DNA from: a virus
Lineage: Duplodnaviria; Heunggongvirae; Uroviricota; Caudoviricetes
Direction: 5' to 3' (one strand)
DNA length: 41,648 nt
IMG/VR virus record: IMGVR_UViG_2541047962_000003
Each line of letters begins with the position of its first letter. The first letter of the stretch is position 1. Position numbers and translations under genes: made by a program. Below, piece after piece: positions 1 to 38,167 of this stretch. The notes beneath the pieces are model-generated. The model was not told where the DNA came from. It did not search any database and worked only from the letters and a program-made list of their open reading frames with translations.

Positions 1-267
1 ATGCGCAGAAAAGAGTCAAACGTTAGCAGTTTGCCGGAACTCACCAATTTTGAGGTAAGCTATTCTCTGGTTACCAATGAAGTTTACTTGTCTGCATCCT
101 TCACTGATAACATGGCCTGTATACCAAACTGGCCCTTACAAGAATTTCCGGATCAACTAATATGTATTTCTCGAGCAAAAGCTGTTGCCCTAATCGAAGA
201 GCTCCAGAAGACCATCGACTATATGGACGCAGGAATCGATCGACAATCAGGTAGCCTGCTCCAGTAG
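1..267 (+). CDS. Hypothetical protein, 3' end only (start may lie upstream of the window)
   Basis: Open frame running from the window edge to a stop at 267. No family recognised. Cannot tell whether it is phage cargo or host. Confidence 0.35.
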   Translation: MRRKESNVSSLPELTNFEVSYSLVTNEVYLSASFTDNMACIPNWPLQEFPDQLICISRAKAVALIEELQKTIDYMDAGIDRQSGSLLQ

Positions 268-399
268 CTGGCGAGTTTTATACTCGTTCCCTGCAACAAT
301 GGCTTTTTGTAATGCACTCACAAATAAGGAATTCGTTAAGGCTTTTGTTCTGGAGACTCTGAAAGATACAAGGAATCAGTTGATGGCTGGTTTGATCAT

Positions 400-440
400 A
401 CTAATTAATATATTGTCAGACTCACAATATATTAATTAGT
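400..440. repeat. Perfect 16-bp inverted repeat with 9-bp spacer (ACTAATTAATATATTG / CAATATATTAATTAGT); candidate operator or recombination site
   Basis: Read directly from the sequence, about 130 bp upstream of the 568 start codon in an AT-rich intergenic region. Confidence 0.6.
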
Positions 441-567
441 GGTAGAACATAAAACCGAGTTCTTGACTTTCAATAGCTATTATATGCGATCAACAACCTT
501 AACCACCTCCTTATATTTTATGAGATACTCAAACAATTTAAATTTATGAGCAAAGGAAAATAATAAA

Positions 568-1413
568 GTGAATAAAAATCCCTGGGATATTCCAGCATGG
601 CACGCTCTGGGCCGAGAAGCATCTTTAGTAACACAGCTCATTGGTTCTGGGGCAACAGCCATAGGTAAAGCCAATTATGCAGACAAAATAGGTGAATATT
701 ACACAGCATTTTTTGGGCTTTCTGTAGGTTTTGAGAGACTTGCTAAACTAATACTTGTTGCACACTATGCCATTGAACACAAAGGAAAAATGCCTGACGA
801 GAATATTGTAAGAAAATTTGGACACAAGCTCATTGAATTAACCAACGAGGTTGATAGTATTTCTAAAAAAATGCAACTATCTCTGAGATATTCACGTCCT
901 ACACATAAAATTACCTACAAAATACTTGAATGTTTAGATTCCTTTGCTGATGCCCGACGGGGACGTTACGCAAATTTCTCCTCATTAAGCAGCCCCAATT
1001 TAACCAATAATGAACCTATTAATAAATGGTGGGGAGAAGTAGCCGAGAGTATCCTTGAAAAACATTATTATTATACAGTTGAACAAAGACGTGTTGAAGA
1101 AAATGCTAGGTTTATCAATGCCACTCTTTCACCGTATACAACGGTCATGTATATGAATGAAAGTACCAACATTATGCAAGACCTTATATCAGCCTCCATC
1201 CGTACTGGACAAAATACCATTGTTCAAAAGTGGGGAAGATTCTATTCTCTTAGCATCGCTCGTTGGCTTGCCACAGTATTAGCAGAACTGTCTGATATAG
1301 CTTCTCATAAATATGGAATAATTAGTTTTTATGGCCTTAGTGAACATTGTTGCAGTTATATAGTTGAAGATAGTTTTTTAAAAAACAGAAAAATATGGCC
1401 ACTTCGCCAATAG
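568..1413 (+). CDS. Hypothetical protein, 281 aa, AT-rich orphan gene; candidate accessory or defence gene
   Basis: Long ORF with GTG start preceded by AAAGGAAAA. Visibly AT-rich compared with flanking phage DNA. No confidently recognised domain. Confidence 0.6.
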   Translation: MNKNPWDIPAWHALGREASLVTQLIGSGATAIGKANYADKIGEYYTAFFGLSVGFERLAKLILVAHYAIEHKGKMPDENIVRKFGHKLIELTNEVDSISKKMQLSLRYSRPTHKITYKILECLDSFADARRGRYANFSSLSSPNLTNNEPINKWWGEVAESILEKHYYYTVEQRRVEENARFINATLSPYTTVMYMNESTNIMQDLISASIRTGQNTIVQKWGRFYSLSIARWLATVLAELSDIASHKYGIISFYGLSEHCCSYIVEDSFLKNRKIWPLRQ

Positions 1414-1732
1414 TTAACGAGAAAATCTGCATAAGGGGGAGAAATCCCCCACCTGTAATAACATAACTACTAAAATTAACACCTTGTTCGCGCAACTCCT
1501 CCACCAGCACGACAAGATGCCGCACACTGCGCCCCAGTCTGTCCAGCTTCCAGACAACCAGCGTATCTCCTTCTGATAGCGTTCTGAGCAGTTTTTTCAA
1601 TCCCGGTCTGGCTGATTTTGTTCCGCTGATTTTATCTTCAAAAATCAGTTCACATCCTGCGCACTCCAGCGCGTTACGCTGCAATTCTGTATTCTGGTCA
1701 TTTGTTGATACGCGGACATAGCCAATAAGCAT
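1337..1732 (-). pseudogene. Gin/Pin/Hin-family serine DNA invertase, truncated; only the N-terminal ~87 residues (about 1472-1732) are invertase-like
   Basis: N-terminus MLIGYVRVSTNDQNT...LVVWKLDRLGRS matches the invertase catalytic domain. After ...REQGVNF the frame continues into unrelated sequence, and the helix-turn-helix C-terminal domain is missing. Confidence 0.8.
1435..1450. terminator. Hairpin GGGGGA-gaaa-TCCCCC, possible bidirectional terminator between the orphan gene and the invertase remnant
   Basis: Perfect 6-bp stem with tetraloop 22 bp after the stop at 1413. No strong T-tract on the + strand, so weak. Confidence 0.3.
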
Positions 1733-1787
1733 GATGGATCCCCTGAATAAAAACCGGGGATGATGCCAGTTAGCCGTAATCTCTGCA

Positions 1788-1814
1788 TTTTCTTAAACGT
1801 TGGTTTGGGAGAAG
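1788..1814. repeat. Invertase crossover site (gix/pix/hix-like), invertase-proximal
   Basis: TTTTCTTAAACGTTGGTTTGGGAGAAG. Its reverse complement shares the 15-mer CTTCTCCCAAACCAA with the site at 3645-3670, in inverted orientation. Resembles the hix/gix AAACC-NN-GGTTT core. Confidence 0.65.
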
Positions 1815-2134
1815 CGGCAAAACGAAATGTGGGAACAGGGGAAAATCAGATACCTGATATGTCATCATATGCATCAGGTTCAGGCTGGCGAAAAATGCCA
1901 GATGGTTCAATTGAACAGTGGGGACGAATTAGTTTTCCTGGTGAACACGGGCCTGTATCCGCCAATGTTTCATTCCCAATTCCATTTACACAGACACCGG
2001 GCATTGTAATTGTGTGCGATGGTGGTTTCGGGGGCGGGAATATGTGGGGGGCGACCAACTGGAGCACTACCGGCTTCATAGCTCACTGCAATTATGGTCT
2101 TGAAGGTGGTGCGTTTTTCGCTAAGGGCTGGTAA
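1800..2134 (+). CDS. Alternative tail-fibre C-terminal (receptor-binding) cassette, promoterless, silent in this orientation
   Basis: The frame encodes ...[10 protein letters not shown]... across the crossover site, paralleling ...ENLGLGEG... in the expressed fibre. Followed directly by a tail-fibre assembly gene. Confidence 0.6.
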
Positions 2135-2577
2135 TGATGAAATATCTGTACGTAAACAACCTGGCATATCCTTACGAACTTCAGTCTCTTTATGTTGAAA
2201 AAGGTGAATGGCCTGAAGAAAAAGGTGTTGATATAGACGAAGTAATTTTCAGGGAATATTTCTATGATACACCACCAGAAGGAAAATACAGATGTGTCGG
2301 AGAGGATGGACTGCCTGCATGGGCAGATATTCCTCCACCAACACGTGAAGAACAAATTGCATCAGCCGAAACTAAAAAGCAGCAATTGATTAACCAGGCC
2401 AACGAATACATCAACAGTAAACAATGGCCAGGTAAAGCATCAATTGGTCGTCTGAAAGGTGAGGAACTGGCGCAATATAATTTGTGGCTGGATTATCTGG
2501 ACGCACTGGAACTGGTCGATACTTCCGGTGCGCCAGATATTGAATGGCCTACGCCTCCGGCAGTTCAGGCCAGATGA
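2134..2577 (+). CDS. Tail-fibre assembly protein (alternative cassette)
   Basis: 147 aa. Position and C-terminal similarity to the 2549-3151 product (both end in ...D-[IV]-[IE]-WP-[TE]-[PL]P...). Tfa-like. Confidence 0.7.
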   Translation: MMKYLYVNNLAYPYELQSLYVEKGEWPEEKGVDIDEVIFREYFYDTPPEGKYRCVGEDGLPAWADIPPPTREEQIASAETKKQQLINQANEYINSKQWPGKASIGRLKGEELAQYNLWLDYLDALELVDTSGAPDIEWPTPPAVQAR

Positions 2578-3151
2578 CGTCCGGCGCTGTGCTGGTATCT
2601 GTTGCCGTCACCGCGTCAATGTAATCCAGCACAGCGTTAAGTCGGGTGTTTTCTGGCTGCGTCAGCTTCCGCCCAGCCTGTAATTTCAGTTGAATCAGAC
2701 TGATGGAAGCCATTGCAGCATCAATCAGCGACTGGCGCTGTGCTTCTGCCGCTTCTACTGCGGCGCTATGCTGTGCCTCGGTATCGGTCACCCATTTCTC
2801 ACCATCCCATTTATCGTATGGCGTTAATGGGGCGATAGTGGTTGTATTTTCGGGGTAATCACCCGGAGTTGTGATTTCTTTGGCGTCTCCCGTTTCGGTG
2901 TTATAGACGATTTCTCCGCGATGGTCTGGCACATATTCCCATGAGTTTAAATCCGCAGAGCGGCAGATGGCATAACCAGCTTTATATGTTCCTGGTGCAT
3001 CTAAACAGGAACATGCCGGAATACCGACACCAACAGCAAGATATTCAGTTGATGTGGAAATATATTCTCGTGTTTCACCATTATAATTATAGACAGTAAT
3101 ATCCCCCGCCTTCGTGGCAATAAACTCGCTATTTAATACGGCATTATCCAT
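2549..3151 (-). CDS. Tail-fibre assembly protein (expressed cassette)
   Basis: 200 aa, immediately downstream of the tail-fibre gene. Tfa-like. Confidence 0.75.
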   Translation of the reverse strand: MDNAVLNSEFIATKAGDITVYNYNGETREYISTSTEYLAVGVGIPACSCLDAPGTYKAGYAICRSADLNSWEYVPDHRGEIVYNTETGDAKEITTPGDYPENTTTIAPLTPYDKWDGEKWVTDTEAQHSAAVEAAEAQRQSLIDAAMASISLIQLKLQAGRKLTQPENTRLNAVLDYIDAVTATDTSTAPDVIWPELPEA

Positions 3152-28883: not shown

Positions 28884-28985
28884 TTTTAGTGGTATTTAGC
28901 AACAACAAACGAGGTTTGTCAAATACAACAAAAATTGTTTTTAATGTGGAGATACACATTAATACAACCCAGAAGGACTAATCCC
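28884..28985. promoter_or_regulatory. Divergent immunity promoter/operator region with three palindromes
   Basis: ACAAAC-gag-GTTTGT (about 28904-28919), AACAA-aaa-TTGTT, and TTAATGTG-gagata-CACATTAA (about 28940-28961), between cro and cI. Confidence 0.55.
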
Positions 28986-29609
28986 ATGTCTCTCGCAGCC
29001 CGTTTTAAAGCACGTCGTTTGGAATTAGGAATGACTCAAGTGGAAGTAGCGAATTCTGCAGGGGTTAGCCAACAATCCATAGAATCCATCGAAAGTGGAC
29101 GAACCAGAAAGCCACGCAATCTTCTGGATCTGGCTAAGGCCTTGAAATGTAGCCCAGACTGGCTACTGAACGGTAAAAATATTATGCCTCTCGCGGAGAT
29201 AAGTACCAGACGCATACCTATATTAAGTTACGTTCAGGCAGGAGAGCTTACAGAAGCAAGAGACATAACAGATCTGACAGGGGAATTTGAATATATTTTG
29301 GCAGACTCTGACATTCCAGAAACATGCTTCGCATTACGTATCGATGGCGACAGCATGCAACCAGAGTTTAAAGAAGGAGACATTGTTATCATCGATCCTG
29401 ATCTATGTCCTGCACCAGGGGAGTTTGTTGTCGCCAAAAACGACGGTCACGAAGCTACATTTAAAAAATACCGTCCATTAGGAATCGGCATCGACGACTT
29501 TGAATTAATCCCCCTAAATCCTGATTACCCTATTTTTCGTAGTGCAGATATGAACTTACAGATCATAGGTGTAATGATCGAACACCGTATTTACCGCCGT
29601 AAACGTTAG
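28986..29609 (+). CDS. cI: CI-type repressor (N-terminal helix-turn-helix plus C-terminal LexA/S24-like autocleavage domain)
   Basis: ...QVEVANSAGVSQQSIESIE... helix-turn-helix and ...GDSMQPEF..GDIVIIDP...KK... in the C-terminal domain. ATG at 28986 preceded by GAAGGA. Confidence 0.85.
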   Translation: MSLAARFKARRLELGMTQVEVANSAGVSQQSIESIESGRTRKPRNLLDLAKALKCSPDWLLNGKNIMPLAEISTRRIPILSYVQAGELTEARDITDLTGEFEYILADSDIPETCFALRIDGDSMQPEFKEGDIVIIDPDLCPAPGEFVVAKNDGHEATFKKYRPLGIGIDDFELIPLNPDYPIFRSADMNLQIIGVMIEHRIYRRKR

Positions 29610-29931
29610 TATTCCCACCGTAAATATCGGGAGGCGTAACAGCCTCCCTTACCCCATTTGTAAAGTCTTACAAATTAAATTCACTTAAATATCAATAAAG
29701 TAGTATTCACACCCCACAAAATACCACATTTGTGGTTTACACAATACAACTCAAATTGTATCTTTAGCCACAAGTCGAACGGCGCGACTCTAAACCATGC
29801 GTCGGGACCGTGGCGGGACAGGATGTCGGCAATACGGGTCAGTAAGTTCCCTTTGGGGTGCGGCGAAGCACTGTCTACTGATACAAGTCGAAGCTGCCGA
29901 ACCACCAAAGTGAACTGAATGAGGAAACGGC

Positions 29932-32610: not shown

Positions 32611-33159
32611 ATGAAACTGAAGCTGAACAATGTTCGTCTGGCCTTCCCGTCTCTGTTTGAAGCTAAAACAGTAAACGGCGAAGGCGATCCACGTTTCTCC
32701 GCAGTATTTTTAATGTCACCCAAACACCCACAACTGGAAGAAATCCGTAAAGCTATGAAGCAGGTAGCGAAGGAAAAATGGGGGGAGAAGTGGGAGTCCA
32801 TTTATAACCAGCTGGAGAAAAAACTCAATCTGTGCCTGCATGATGGTGATGAAAAAGCAGAGTATGAAGGCTTTCCCGGCAATTTCTTCCTGAACGCTGC
32901 TAACAAAGCGCGCCCAGCTGTTCTTGATCGCGATCGTTCGCCACTAATTCAGGCTGATGGACGTCCCTATGCAGGGTGCTATGTAAACGCCGTTATCGAT
33001 ATCTGGGCACAGGACAATAATTTCGGTAAACGCATTAATGCCTCACTCGGAGGAGTCCAGTTCCTGCGAGACGGCGATGCATTCGCTGGCGGCGGAGTGG
33101 CAAGCGCTGACGATTTCGACGATATCAGCGAAGGTGCTGATGCTGAAGCACTAATTTAA
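32611..33159 (+). CDS. DUF2815-like single-stranded DNA-binding protein
   Basis: 182 aa with acidic C-terminal tail (…DDFDDISEGADAEALI), between the nuclease and polymerase genes. Confidence 0.5.
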   Translation: MKLKLNNVRLAFPSLFEAKTVNGEGDPRFSAVFLMSPKHPQLEEIRKAMKQVAKEKWGEKWESIYNQLEKKLNLCLHDGDEKAEYEGFPGNFFLNAANKARPAVLDRDRSPLIQADGRPYAGCYVNAVIDIWAQDNNFGKRINASLGGVQFLRDGDAFAGGGVASADDFDDISEGADAEALI

Positions 33160-33210
33160 AAATATTCATCCCCCAGCTACGTGCTGGGGTATCTCATGAG
33201 GGAAAGAATA

Positions 33211-33852
33211 ATGTCACAGCCCGTATTAACTAATCACCTTAAAACTCAAATCATCAATAACGCACTTGAGAAAGCGGGTATCCCCAAACGTAAATCAGCA
33301 CTACGAGCTGCTCGTGTTGAATGGGCCGAACGTGTTCGGCTTGCAGCTATCGGGGGCGTAGAGAAAGAAGCTGAAATATTAAAAAATATAAAAAAGATTG
33401 AATCCATGGTAACAAAAATCCCTGATTCATTAAAAACCAATAGTTCTTTAATTCGAAAAGATTGCTGCATATATCTCAATCTGGCTGGAGCCAGAGCAAA
33501 CATTTATTTCAATGGCAACTACAGAGGTTATGAATCAGGAGCCCCCGAGCATATTAATAAAATAGCACCTGCAGAATTTACTCTACTTGGCGAAGATCCT
33601 CTGGTAACGGAGTTTTATAGCTTTGATGCTCTCTACACACAAATTAAAAGTGATGAAACCGAAATCATACAGAACGTCAGCGCGGCTCTAAATAAAGTTC
33701 GGACAGTAAAACGATTACTGGATGTATGGCCCGAAGCTAAAGAACTGCTTCCAACAGACGCACCGCCAGTCCCTTTAGCACCAGCAGTACATCGAGAGAC
33801 ATTAAATGAAATGATAGGCCTTCCTACCAATACAGTGTCTGATACTCAATAA
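33211..33852 (+). CDS. Hypothetical protein, AT-rich
   Basis: ATG at 33211 preceded by GAGGGAAAG. No domain recognised. Confidence 0.5.
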   Translation: MSQPVLTNHLKTQIINNALEKAGIPKRKSALRAARVEWAERVRLAAIGGVEKEAEILKNIKKIESMVTKIPDSLKTNSSLIRKDCCIYLNLAGARANIYFNGNYRGYESGAPEHINKIAPAEFTLLGEDPLVTEFYSFDALYTQIKSDETEIIQNVSAALNKVRTVKRLLDVWPEAKELLPTDAPPVPLAPAVHRETLNEMIGLPTNTVSDTQ

Positions 33853-34535
33853 CAAGGGGGATGCTTATTATATGATTTTGAACGTTTTACAATCTCGTTA
33901 AGAGGCGTGAAATCAAAATCTCTGAATAACACATCAGGATACTTCGCTCTTGCTTTATCCAGCAAACCAGTTAAAGTATTTTTTGTGTTACCCAACATTG
34001 TATTAACCGCCACTACATGTCTAATTTCTGGAGGTTTATCTATACCACCAGAAATTGCTTCATTAAGAACCGACGCCAGTGGGGTTTGTCCCTTACTTGT
34101 TGAATCCCACAGCGTCATTAACAGACGAGCTGCGTCTATAAATAGCTTTTTGTCAGCATTTGGCTTGACAGTAATACCAGAACTACCTGAGCCAGAACCG
34201 GAACGTTCTATTGCTGCACTGGTATCCGATTTCATAGGATTAAATAACGGCAGCTCTGTACAACCGATACGCCGAATGAAATCCTTTGCAACATCTCTAC
34301 CACAGAAAAAAGCCCCTGTACAATTTTCATCAGAGCGTTTTTTAAATGAAAAACAATAGTACTGATCGGTTAACGGATAACCGGAATAACTGGTTTTAGT
34401 TTGTCCAGTAATAAGTTTCAGGTGTGCAACAGGCTGAATAATAAAATCCCGAACTATCGCATCTTTTATGTCGTTACCACGGTGACAATAATATTCAGGT
34501 AATCCATTAGGCTGTCTCTTATTACCCACAGTCAT
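33846..34535 (-). CDS. Hypothetical protein (229 aa) with Cys/His-rich N-terminal region and Ser/Gly linker; antisense to the early operon
   Basis: AT-rich. Convergent with the preceding gene (7-bp overlap). Divergent AT-rich promoter region shared with the polymerase gene. Confidence 0.5.
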   Translation of the reverse strand: MTVGNKRQPNGLPEYYCHRGNDIKDAIVRDFIIQPVAHLKLITGQTKTSYSGYPLTDQYYCFSFKKRSDENCTGAFFCGRDVAKDFIRRIGCTELPLFNPMKSDTSAAIERSGSGSGSSGITVKPNADKKLFIDAARLLMTLWDSTSKGQTPLASVLNEAISGGIDKPPEIRHVVAVNTMLGNTKNTLTGLLDKARAKYPDVLFRDFDFTPLNEIVKRSKSYNKHPPCY

Positions 34536-34596
34536 TAGTTGTCTCCTTTAATTCATGATATCTAGCATTTAACCATATACCATATGAGGATATTTT

Positions 34597-36660
34597 ATGT
34601 CCAATATACTATGGGGCGACCTGGAAACCTATTGTGACATTCCGATCAACAACGGTACCCATGCGTATGCCGAAGGCGTTGAAGTGATGCTTTTCGCATG
34701 GGCTATCAACGACGGGCCAGTAAACGTGTGGGATATCACTGCCGGTGGTGGTATTCCACACGGCTTATACGAAGCAATCGCAGACCCTGAAACCCTGCTT
34801 TATTTCCATAACTCTCACTTCGACCGCACCGTTCTGCGTTATGCAATGCCGCGACTGGCACCGCCAGTCGAACGTTGGCGCGACACGATGGTGCAGGCGC
34901 TGGCGCACGGTCTCCCGGGGTCTCTGGGGGAACTCTGCGAAGTACTAGGCGTCCCGCAAGACAAAGCGAAGGACAAAGAAGGTAAAGCGCTGATCCAGCT
35001 GTTCTGTAAGCCACGCCCGAAAAACAGCAAACTGCGTCGGGCCACCAGTAAAACCCACCCGGAAGAATGGCGGCGCTTTGTTGCTTACGCCGGACTGGAT
35101 ATCGAGGCAATGCGCGAAGTCTATAAACGTCTGCCGAAGTGGAATTATCAGGGGACAGAACTGGCGCTCTGGCATCGTGATCAGCAGATCAATGACCGGG
35201 GCGTCTGCATGGACATGCAACTCGCACGCGCTGCGATCGAAGCGGTAGACCAGGAACAAAAGCGCCTAGCAAAGCGTACACAGGAAATGACTGATGGCGA
35301 AGTGCAGGCAGCCACACAACGAGACGCGTTGATTAAGCACATTGTTGAATCCTACGGTGTGGAGCTACCAGACATGCAACGCAGTACTCTGGAACGTCGT
35401 ATTGCCGACCCCGATTTACCATCTGCCGTGAAAGAACTGCTGGCTATCCGCCTGCAGGCCAGTACTACCAGCACCAGTAAATACAAGGCACTGATGAAAG
35501 GCGTAAGCCACGACGGGCGCTTACGCGGTACGCTACAGTTCTGCGGGGCGTCACGTACCGGTCGTTGGGCCGGACGGCTATTCCAGCCCCAGAACCTTCC
35601 CCGCCCTTCACTAAAACAGGAACAAATAGACGAAGGCATCGAAGCACTGAAAGCCGGATGTGCAGACCTGCTGTTTGACAATATCATGGAACTAACCAGT
35701 TCAGCGTTACGTGGCTGCATTATCGCGCCAACAGGCAAAAAGCTGGTGGTAAGTGACTTGTCGAACATTGAAGGCCGTATGCTGGCATGGCTGGCGGGAG
35801 AAGAATGGAAACTGAATGCATTCAGAGAGTACGACGCCGGAACGGGTCCGGACTTATATAAACTGGCGTATGCAAAAGCTTTCGATATTGCACCAGATGA
35901 TGTTGATAAACACATGCGTCAGATCGGTAAAGTCATGGAACTCGGTCTGGGTTATGGTGGTGGTGTGTCGGCCTTCATCACTTTTGCACTGGTTTACGGT
36001 CTCGATCTCGACGAGCTGGCGAACGCCGCACTACCAAACATTCCCCGCGATGTTATCCGCGAGGCGAAAAGCTGGTACGACGAATCGGTTAAACGCAAGT
36101 CAACCTACGGGCTTTCTGAACGGGTATTTATCGCCTGCGACTCACTTAAACGTCTCTGGCGCAGGGCGCACCCGGCGACCTGCGATTTCTGGTACGAACT
36201 GGAGCGCACCGTCCGCACAGCAATCGCCACACCGCAAAAAACATTGTATTGCGGCTATCTTAAAATCCGACGTGATGGCGCGTGGCTGCGCATACAGCTA
36301 CCATCCGGACGCGCTGTATGCTACCCGTCTCCGGTTATCGAAAAAGGGAATATCACCTACATGGGTGTTAACTCTTATTCGCGTAAATGGCAACGACTCA
36401 AAACCTACGGCGGAAAGCTGGTGGAGAACGTCACCCAGGCAGCCGCCCGCGACGTTCTGGCCGGAAACATGCCGCTTATCGAAGATGCCGGTTACAGCAT
36501 TGTGTTGACGGTACACGACGAGGTGATCACCGAAGCACCTGACACAGAAGATTTCAACGATAAAGCGCTTTCCGCGCTTCTCTCCACTAACCCCGAATGG
36601 GCACCCGATATCCCACTGAACGCTGGCGGTTTTGAGGCGTACCACTACCGTAAGGATTAA
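34597..36660 (+). CDS. Family A DNA polymerase with 3'-5' exonuclease domain
   Basis: ...GDLETYCD... exonuclease motif, ...[16 protein letters not shown]... motif B-like, ...VHDEV... motif C. Confidence 0.85.
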
Positions 36661-36665
36661 CTCCT

Positions 36666-36881
36666 ATGTCATTTAAATACCGGGACAATCCACTTTATTA
36701 CAGGGCCGCAAGGGAGGCTTTGCGACTTGAACAATCCGGCGAATATGACCGGGCAGCGAAGGTCTGGGCAAAAGCCAACCGCGAATCACATCACGAATTG
36801 AATCAGGAATGGAGTGAACGCAGATCTGATTTTTGCCTGATGCAGAATATGCGTGAAAAGCGTAAGGTGGTCGAAGAATGA
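36666..36881 (+). CDS. Small hypothetical protein (71 aa)
   Basis: ORF translationally coupled to the downstream gene. Confidence 0.4.
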   Translation: MSFKYRDNPLYYRAAREALRLEQSGEYDRAAKVWAKANRESHHELNQEWSERRSDFCLMQNMREKRKVVEE

Positions 36882-37177
36882 TCGTTTACGTTGCCGGGCC
36901 GATGAGCGGTTACGAGCAATTTAACCGCCCGGCTTTTCATTCCGCAGCAAAGAGGCTAACGGACAAGGGATATGTTGTGCTTAACCCCGCAACTTTACCC
37001 GATGGTTTGACACAGGCTCAGTACATGGACATCTGCCTCGCCATGCTTCGCTGTGCCGATACGATTTATATGCTCAAAGAGTGGGAGTACTCTGCCGGCG
37101 CACGTGCAGAAAACGCGTTGGCAGAGAAACTGGAATTGAATGTGCTTTTTGAAGAGTGGGATTCAGATGGCCTATGA
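36878..37177 (+). CDS. DUF4406-like (nucleoside 2-deoxyribosyltransferase-like) protein
   Basis: ...VYVAGPMSGYEQFNRPAFHSAAKRL...VLNPA... matches the family signature as recalled. Confidence 0.55.
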   Translation: MIVYVAGPMSGYEQFNRPAFHSAAKRLTDKGYVVLNPATLPDGLTQAQYMDICLAMLRCADTIYMLKEWEYSAGARAENALAEKLELNVLFEEWDSDGL

Positions 37178-37441: not shown

Positions 37442-38167
37442 TCATTCTGAGCGATTTTTCTTGAGCTTAGAAGCTTTTAAAAAACATACTTTTAGTTGTT
37501 GTGTTTCTTTTATGCTTACAGGAATTAATTTCCCCTCAATTCCTTCGACACTCATAAATTCAGAGCTATTTTTTTTACAGTTCCCCAAGACAAATTTTCC
37601 GTTATAGCTTTCGATAATATAAGCATCATATTTTTTAGAATAAAAAAGAGGCTCATCTGATAAGTATGCCCATGCCCACCCAAGGACTGAAGGAAGCATT
37701 GCTATGGATATAAAAAACATAACCCCATGAGTTTTGTTTTTTATTCTAAATTCATTCCTAATAAAAACAGATACTGCCCTGACACTGATAGGGCTAATAA
37801 ATCCCAATAGTATTGCTTGGGTAGCCACATCCCTTATGGATTTTTCATAAAGGTATGAGCTACCGCCATATAAATACATTGTCCAGTATGAAAGCAAAGA
37901 GGCCAAAATGAAGAAAAATAAATACACCCCCCATGGAATATTCTTCTCTTCAGTATCAATATGCAGCAAAGCGACTAAGGTGCACAAAAGTCCTAATGCA
38001 ATAACAGAAAACTTAACTATTTCCTCAATCCCAATAGAAATAAAACTTACAGGGAATCCATAAAATGAGCTGTATCCTTTGTAAAAAGAAAAAGCCATAA
38101 AATAAAGGGCGGCCAAGAGAACCGTTGTAATTGATAAATCTTTTACATTCATGATGTTCAAGAGCAC
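37442..38167 (-). CDS. Polytopic membrane protein (241 aa), very AT-rich, antisense to the early operon
   Basis: Four to six hydrophobic helices. Inserted between the VRR-NUC and SNF2 genes on the opposite strand. Confidence 0.55.
   Translation of the reverse strand: MLLNIMNVKDLSITTVLLAALYFMAFSFYKGYSSFYGFPVSFISIGIEEIVKFSVIALGLLCTLVALLHIDTEEKNIPWGVYLFFFILASLLSYWTMYLYGGSSYLYEKSIRDVATQAILLGFISPISVRAVSVFIRNEFRIKNKTHGVMFFISIAMLPSVLGWAWAYLSDEPLFYSKKYDAYIIESYNGKFVLGNCKKNSSEFMSVEGIEGKLIPVSIKETQQLKVCFLKASKLKKNRSE

Follow-up and report, generated by a model that had tools for sequence, protein, structure and literature searches.

A replaceable cargo slot in the replication genes of an Escherichia coli prophage, occupied by an Nmad5 gene and a candidate defence gene

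We analysed a stretch of 41,648 nucleotides (hereafter, the window; IMG/VR virus record IMGVR_UViG_2541047962_000003), which is an Escherichia coli prophage, and concentrated on two AT-rich genes that lie within its replication module, between the gene for a DUF2815 protein and that for a family A DNA polymerase (PolA). The segment that holds both genes, 33160-34596, is a replaceable cargo cassette in a recombination hotspot, and we have high confidence in this conclusion. On balance, we favour an account in which this swappable slot carries two independent passengers, namely Nmad5, which would belong to the lytic programme, and an antisense gene of the UCP028583 family, a candidate for a defence or exclusion gene expressed in the lysogen. 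An earlier note on this DNA, made from the sequence alone, had described the two open reading frames, one codirectional (213 residues) and one antisense (229 residues), with a 7-bp overlap of their 3' ends and with a gene for a protein resembling single-stranded DNA-binding (ssDNA-binding) proteins and a polymerase gene as neighbours. Coordinates, base composition and Pfam assignments of both flanks agreed with that description. The features of the region are given below.

32611-33159, plus strand: DUF2815/Enc34-type ssDNA-binding protein gene (PF10991, E = 2.4e-44), conserved left flank of the slot
33160-34596: variable cargo cassette of 1437 bp, delimited by blastn breakpoints against nine sister loci
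33171-33189: GC-rich hairpin CCCCAGC-TACGT-GCTGGGG, just 3' of the DUF2815 stop, in a 51-nt spacer that folds at -16.4 kcal/mol
33211-33852, plus strand: Nmad5-family gene, 213 residues, co-directional with the replication genes; the ATG start is that of the RefSeq call WP_001520089.1
33846-33852: 7-bp overlap of the two convergent stop codons, seen in the sequence
33846-34535, minus strand: antisense gene, 229 residues (WP_000215799.1; PF27729 'UCP028583')
34536-34596: divergent spacer of 61 bp, GC about 0.28, which holds the antisense Shine-Dalgarno sequence and the PolA ribosome-binding region
34597-36660, plus strand: PolA gene (PF00476, E = 5.3e-14), conserved right flank of the slot

The slot between DUF2815 and PolA

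The plus-strand frame is open from a GTG at 33181 to 33852, and the 213 residues are counted from the ATG at 33211. The GC content of the Nmad5 gene was 0.408 (0.294 at third codon positions, GC3) and that of the antisense gene 0.393 (GC3 0.283), compared to 0.488 (GC3 0.459) for DUF2815, 0.540 (GC3 0.565) for PolA and 0.496 for the window. Values below those of the two genes were seen in just 3.5-5.4% of 690-bp windows of the sequence.

We compared the slot across nine related loci with flanks 97-99% identical to those of the window, and placed its borders by blastn. Homology stopped at 33157-33160 and restarted at 34597 (34605 in one locus) in most of the nine. Breakpoints fell at the DUF2815 stop in eight of the nine sister loci, and also at the PolA start, with the exception of locus L012, where the first ~270 bp of PolA were divergent too. 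Since homology is lost at 33159 and regained at 34597, the segment 33160-34596 is a replaceable cassette bounded by the DUF2815 stop and the PolA start. The alternative cassettes ranged from 537 to 2310 bp, with GC of 0.29-0.46, and at least seven different cargo sets were present, including the following.

Window: Nmad5 (plus strand) and UCP028583 (minus strand)
L007: second Nmad5 allele, 79% identical in nucleotides and frameshifted there (plus), and an 89-residue protein with two transmembrane segments (minus)
L008: 166-residue protein with an N-terminal transmembrane segment (minus)
L009: 199-residue transmembrane protein (minus)
L011 and L014: AntA or BRO-N gene (plus) and the 199-residue transmembrane protein of L009 (minus)
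L010 and phage 606R2: 209-residue transmembrane protein (minus)
L012: 493-residue SIR2 protein, PADLOC candidate PDC-S25, E = 4e-157 (plus)

The four small proteins of 89, 166, 199 and 209 residues are mutually unrelated and carry hydrophobic segments of a membrane-spanning kind; all are encoded antisense by genes with GC of 0.29-0.40, and none had a match in the family or PADLOC scans. Exchange of cargo was also seen in isolated phages of the same family, of which there are three (vB_EcoM-606R2, -689R2 and -611R5): there, the 209-residue antisense gene replaces both Nmad5 and UCP028583. On comparison, the 209-residue protein of phage 606R2 was unrelated to the 229-residue protein, and kinship between the two was rejected. 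The view of the earlier note that both genes are compositionally foreign cargo was therefore upheld by the exchange of the whole segment between nearly identical flanks, and the synteny check that it had proposed pointed the same way, with vB_EcoM-606R2 and its relatives carrying neither gene in the slot.

A smaller exchange was seen in L007. Its Nmad5 part is shared with the window, at lower identity, and only the antisense module has been exchanged, with breakpoints at 33825/33826 and 34569/34570, so that Nmad5 is kept and the segment 34570-34596 is common to the window and the L007 cassette. No direct or inverted repeats flank 33160-34596 and no transposase domain is present in the cassette, and we therefore rejected an origin as a transposon or insertion sequence. 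The lack of flanking repeats makes the swaps look like ordinary gene-boundary recombination between phages, and not transposition. As a separate observation, an IS1 element is inserted in the slot region of ECZP248 (NZ_CP034784.1).

The hairpin at 33171-33189 may serve as a terminator and mark the end of the antisense transcript. The L010 and L012 cassettes have non-homologous hairpins in the corresponding position (about 1075-1095), and such elements downstream of DUF2815 may be transcript ends brought in by each cassette. An Rfam scan of the entire window found no RNA family. At the other border, L012 has a strong bidirectional terminator (AAAAAGCCGCC...GGCGGCTTTTT) at 2654-2729, between SIR2 and PolA. 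Its location right before PolA indicates that transcription of PolA may not depend on simple read-through, and PolA may be transcribed by antitermination or from a promoter of its own.

The antisense gene and its possible role

The identical protein P0001 and all 17 homologues carry a precomputed PF27729 (UCP028583) assignment. A profile search over 1.84 billion representatives retrieved 421 clusters at 50% identity (E <= 1e-3), nearly all of 200-230 residues and aligned end to end, and the family reaches from Enterobacterales to Bacillus and Lysinibacillus. Relatives as close as 57-73% identity are scarce and belong to Enterobacterales. The prophage copy belongs to this small subgroup (229-230 residues), is about 25-35% identical to the bulk of PF27729, and is a full-length member with all of the family motifs. 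The gene is present as a single copy in 27 complete E. coli genomes, at identities of at least 99.3%. The protein returned nothing significant in Pfam, PHROGs and NCBIfam scans, no match by tblastn in 50,697 phage records, and no fold match in the solved structures or the viral structure set searched. UCP028583, PF27729 and the two RefSeq proteins are mentioned in no paper of the literature library that was searched.

The AlphaFold2 model of the antisense protein was confident, with a predicted local distance difference test (pLDDT) score of 82 and a predicted template modelling score of 0.80, and consisted of two domains joined by a linker. It is a soluble protein in which no effector domain could be recognised.

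34224-34508, minus strand: N-terminal alpha/beta domain, residues 10-104 (DSSP helices 21-30 and 80-90; strands 31-40, 58-66 and 73-79)
34173-34223, minus strand: disordered Ser/Gly-rich linker, residues 105-121 (pLDDT below 50), a variable low-complexity region in family alignments
33849-34172, minus strand: C-terminal five-helix domain, residues 122-229 (helices 127-142, 150-162, 171-183, 188-198 and 210-218)

The family motifs of the N-terminal domain are CxRG, AHxKL, GQxKxS, DxYYxF, FxCG and LPLFNP. Residues conserved across the family are C17 and R19 (of CxRG), H38, K40, Q45, S49, D57, Y59, Y60, F62, C78, G79, F98, N99, P100, A135, W143, N178 and F209. In the C-terminal domain, N178 is invariant, and A135 and F209 occur in more than 90% of the family. 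The conserved polar residues, N178 among them, suggest a predicted pocket at the domain interface. The Ser/Gly linker described earlier was readily located (SGSGSGSSG at about residues 114-122, within the segment of low pLDDT). The N-terminal region, which had been called Cys/His-rich, is so in composition (five Cys and two His in the first 100 residues), but no pattern of a four-ligand zinc site is present. Only C17 and C78 are conserved among the cysteines in most of the family, H38 is found in 76%, and a zinc-finger reading of this region was rejected.

We then inspected the surroundings of homologues in a sample of about 13 loci, about 11 of them outside prophages, in which all counts are raw and carry no background rate. 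A related-locus search with the alignment of close relatives gave four genome loci. The neighbourhoods were varied.

L030 (4437-15087): UCP028583 between a NERD+UvrD helicase gene and the genes for DndF, DndG and a 1753-residue DUF87 protein
L028 (Bacillus safensis): immediately downstream of a SLATT-QueC-TGT-cyclase (CBASS-type) operon; transposases are near
L005 (3660-5741) and L006 (742-2823): in a locus for type I restriction-modification, preceded by genes for a HigB-like toxin and a 372-residue HTH_3 protein
L020 and L021: island with an integrase, a DRT-type DUF1848 gene, a deaminase and a WYL regulator
L003 (Dickeya): beside a 1056-residue SIR2 protein
L023: next to a fragment of an integrase and an HNH gene
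L031: DUF4942 methyltransferase, Prok-JAB, UDG, ROS/MucR, HU, ParE-like, RecD2-like helicase and SLT genes
L029: DUF4942 and RecD2-like helicase genes
L018: D12 methyltransferase and an SLT protein

In L030, a DndFGH neighbourhood, these genes share a strand, and the gaps downstream of UCP028583 are short. In L005 and L006, the homologue is 33% identical and the gaps between the three genes are 5 and 7 bp, with the homologue placed 8 bp after the HigB and HTH_3 pair; HigB, HTH_3 and UCP028583 may form a three-gene operon in this subfamily. In Pantoea stewartii and in one metagenomic contig (L016 and L024), a homologue of 57-58% identity is divergent from PolA, with DUF2303 on the other side and no Nmad5. 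Recognised defence genes were immediate neighbours in at least 5 of the 11 non-prophage loci, again as a raw count. The variety of these neighbourhoods marks UCP028583 as a mobile solo gene associated with mobile elements and defence islands.

The company that homologues keep elsewhere, together with the other occupants of the slot, makes the antisense gene a candidate for the exclusion or defence role that the earlier note had suggested for the pair. We propose, as a possibility that falls somewhat short of probable, that the gene has a function in defence or superinfection exclusion. In the mechanism that we envisage, Nmad5 would be read along with the replication genes and made when early and replication genes are transcribed. 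The antisense gene would be transcribed on its own while the repressor silences the rightward genes, and its product could act as a single-gene factor that protects the lysogen against other phages. Early transcription through the slot towards PolA, if it occurs, would cross the antisense gene the wrong way and could lower its expression in lytic growth. The wider proposal, that UCP028583 is a new single-protein anti-phage defence family whose fold is unseen in the solved structures and viral structure set searched, and that the DUF2815-PolA slot and two neighbouring ones make up a hotspot system, is made more tentatively.

Several observations weigh against a defence role expressed in the lysogen. 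PADLOC-DB v2.0.0 had no significant match for the 229-residue protein, the only hit being IetA (E = 0.032, 12 bits). The earlier note had placed a divergent AT-rich promoter region in front of the gene. The 61-bp AT-rich spacer facing PolA is indeed there, and a strong Shine-Dalgarno sequence (AGGAG, 34543-34547, minus strand) lies 7 nt ahead of the ATG, but a consensus scan of the minus strand from 34536 to 34900, which covers the spacer and the first 300 bp of PolA, gave no sigma-70-like site. Manual inspection yielded only two weak candidates, TATCAT (34560-34555; poor -35) and TATATT (34608-34603; within the first PolA codons), and neither was accepted as a promoter. The context sample is small and lacks a formal background model. 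Homologues in L004 and L022 sit among ordinary chromosomal genes with no defence gene directly adjacent (Lamassu-like genes are 5 kb off in L022), and L018, L029 and L031 are cargo regions resembling those of conjugative elements, where anti-defence and establishment genes also live.

Among the other accounts of the antisense gene, the one that survives best, though we judge it unlikely, is that UCP028583 has a different function in the lysogen, either as a prophage regulator acting on PolA or induction, or as a factor in host physiology or lysogenic conversion. Two prophage lineages, with UCP028583 proteins 57-58% identical to each other, both have the gene directly divergent from PolA, no known effector domain came to light, and R19, H38, K40, Q45, S49, D57, Y59/Y60, C78 and N178 could form a ligand- or nucleic-acid-binding site. 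However, sister prophages with 97-99% identical PolA have unrelated membrane proteins or SIR2 instead, and PolA therefore needs no specific partner. Most homologues are far from any polymerase, and library scans found no helix-turn-helix or other DNA-binding family in the protein. A role in counter-defence or in the establishment of mobile elements, such as inhibiting host defence or protecting incoming DNA, is more doubtful still. It would suit a small soluble protein that matches no known effector domain and has distant homologues in the conjugative-element or plasmid-like cargo regions of L031, L029 and L018. Phage anti-defence genes are, however, normally early and co-directional, whereas this gene is antisense to early lytic genes; it is absent from the deposited phage genomes searched, several homologues lie within Dnd, CBASS and type I restriction-modification loci of chromosomes, and the other slot occupants resemble exclusion or defence genes.

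Nmad5 and its relation to the antisense gene

The codirectional gene belongs to a known family. It matched PF18757 (Nmad5, 'nucleotide modification associated domain 5') with E = 1.5e-54 and 185.7 bits against a cutoff of 27, residues 6-205 aligning to positions 3-206 of a 206-position model, and is also a member of phrog_1965 (E = 2e-57); RefSeq names the product 'Nmad5 family putative nucleotide modification protein'. The C-terminal signature TVKRLLxxWPEAKELLP ... LNxMIGLP is present, and K167, W173, P174, E175, E178, L179, L180, P181, L198, N199, G203, L204 and P205 were invariant in an alignment of 30 sequences. This tail (WPEAKELLP...LNxMIGLP), the most conserved part of the protein, looks like a docking motif. 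The AlphaFold2 model (pLDDT 85) is a helical bundle with a small sheet, and structure comparison found no similarity to any enzyme. The label 'DNA modification enzyme' received no support from this fold or from any other result, and the protein looks like an adaptor or binding protein. It had no match in PADLOC-DB v2.0.0.

By tblastn, Nmad5 was detected in 154 phage records, in differing genomic places. Salmonella phage SPN3UB (63.5% identity) has it in the nin region, lambdoid phage mEp235 has it between N/Nun and cIII, and Pseudomonas phage ZRG1 between terminase and portal. In every phage inspected, it was co-directional with the surrounding lytic genes. In view of this orientation, it is not evident that the codirectional gene is cargo expressed in the lysogen. 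The only experimental work on Nmad5 that our literature search found is a study of a Dhillonvirus phage (PMC11846954), in which deletion of nmad5 was tolerated, the gene could not be cloned, apparently through toxicity, and a single Lys-to-Glu change in it allowed escape from the Tmn defence system. The Nmad5 gene of the window and Dhillonvirus nmad5 are both non-core accessory genes, the former in a slot of a prophage replication module and the latter near capsid genes. Nmad5 is a widespread, dispensable accessory gene of phages.

The two genes are, most likely, functionally independent passengers, as each is widespread without the other. None of the 154 phage records with Nmad5 carries UCP028583, and Nmad5 was a neighbour in none of the roughly 13 other UCP028583 loci. 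Nmad5 is present in 59 complete E. coli genomes, 27 with the allele of the window (26 complete, one truncated) and 32 with the 79%-identical allele. These 32 lack UCP028583, and in L007, the sole such locus inspected, the neighbour is the 89-residue membrane protein. In EH2252 (NZ_AP027176.1), the antisense gene is retained at 100% identity alongside just the final 35% of Nmad5. Of the 159 E. coli prophages of this kind, about 100 have neither gene. The caution in the earlier note that the pair may be unlinked was well placed.

We regard it as very improbable that the genes are a functional pair, of the toxin-antitoxin type or as a two-gene defence, in which the antisense protein neutralises or cooperates with Nmad5. 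The genes do converge, overlap by 7 bp and share an AT-rich composition; the window allele of Nmad5 adjoins UCP028583 in all 27 E. coli genomes that carry the latter; and cloning of Dhillonvirus nmad5 failed, apparently through toxicity (PMC11846954). Against this stand the many genomes in which each gene lacks the other, the loss of most of Nmad5 beside an intact UCP028583 in EH2252, and the exchange of the antisense module on its own in L007. Convergent orientation also rules out an operon, and the toxin-antitoxin reading offered earlier was not sustained.

Equally improbable is a conserved role for both genes as replication accessory factors in phages of this type, in spite of their position between the ssDNA-binding-like gene and the polymerase and of the association with DNA-metabolism genes from which Nmad5 originally took its name: the roughly 100 prophages just mentioned and three viable isolated phages do without both, the composition is clearly non-uniform (the earlier note had given conservation with uniform composition as the finding that would speak against cargo), Nmad5 is found at unrelated positions in SPN3UB, mEp235 and ZRG1, and nmad5 deletion is viable in the Dhillonvirus phage (PMC11846954).

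The prophage, its other variable positions and known systems

The chromosomes of E. coli FDAARGOS_144 and of several further strains match the window at 100% identity, and the integrase of the prophage, at the right end, abuts yfhL. Annotated genes include myovirus-type tail and head genes and a LexA/S24-type repressor. The rightward block reads DUF2800 nuclease, DUF2815, Nmad5, antisense gene, PolA, ANR, DUF4406, VRR-NUC, second antisense gene and SNF2 helicase. The PolA region is found in 159 of 5426 complete E. coli genomes, in the chromosome every time.

Two further positions in this block vary. Between VRR-NUC and SNF2 lies an antisense open reading frame of 241 residues (37442-38167, minus strand, GC 0.34) with several hydrophobic stretches and no family match, where phage 606R2 has two co-directional genes instead; this interval looks like a second cargo slot. 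After PolA, the window carries ANR and DUF4406 (36666-37177), and the corresponding coordinates in relatives are 9417-10178 in L001, 5499-5932 in L011 and 4859-5320 in L012. Some relatives have a TIR-domain protein here (PADLOC candidate PDC-S35, E = 1e-108), and the position would be a third variable slot of the same module. PDC-S25 and PDC-S35 are candidate PADLOC systems and not validated ones.

Other features were seen at a distance from the replication genes. Another stretch of low GC (29071-29781) extends over the 3' part of the S24/LexA-type repressor gene (28935-29609) and over the interval that precedes the early rightward genes. The left end of the window, 1-1801, is AT-rich. A 131-residue resolvase/invertase-type gene (1337-1732, minus strand) adjoins tail-fibre C-terminal and tail-fibre assembly genes, and this gene set (window 1-2600) suggests an invertible tail-fibre segment. 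A 281-residue open reading frame at 568-1413 had no family match.

Prophage exclusion genes expressed in the lysogen include lambda rexAB and sieB and P22 sieA and sieB, and Sie-type proteins are small membrane proteins. BstA is a single-gene prophage defence expressed in the lysogen (Owen et al., 2021, PMC8585504). Like these, the antisense gene is a small prophage gene outside the lytic transcription programme and is proposed to protect the lysogen, and the alternative cargo of the slot includes small membrane proteins, as Sie-type proteins are. Unlike them, UCP028583 is soluble, has no KilA-N domain and shares neither sequence nor fold similarity with them.

The slot itself resembles the hotspots for anti-phage genes in P2-like prophages and P4-like satellites (Rousset et al., 2022, PMC9122126), where conserved phage core genes are reported to flank many mutually exclusive AT-rich cargo genes, some of them recognisable defence genes. 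In the present prophages, the slot is bordered by the DUF2815 stop and the PolA start, and the recognisable cargo includes SIR2/PDC-S25, with TIR/PDC-S35 in a neighbouring slot. The resemblance is one of kind, with no homology to those hotspots. The differences are that the phage family is another one, myovirus-like with a DUF2800/DUF2815/PolA/VRR-NUC/SNF2 replication module, that the slot lies inside the replication gene block, and that most of its cargo, which may or may not be anti-phage, is antisense.

Nmad5 and UCP028583 are already catalogued as families, so neither gene is new in itself. Novelty may lie in recognising the replication module of this prophage family as an array of cargo slots, and in proposing UCP028583, along with the four antisense membrane proteins, as candidates for defence or exclusion. 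The lack of structural support for the Nmad5 label matters for the reading of Nmad5-dependent escape from Tmn. Should the antisense gene have no phage phenotype, the slot would be a case of ordinary phage mosaicism. If it does protect lysogens, it would add a defence family with an unrecognised fold, of 421 clusters across Proteobacteria and Firmicutes. A prophage family found in about 3% of complete E. coli genomes would then carry at least three cargo slots in its replication module, and these slots would be a compact place to seek exclusion and defence genes, as the P2 and P4 hotspots were.

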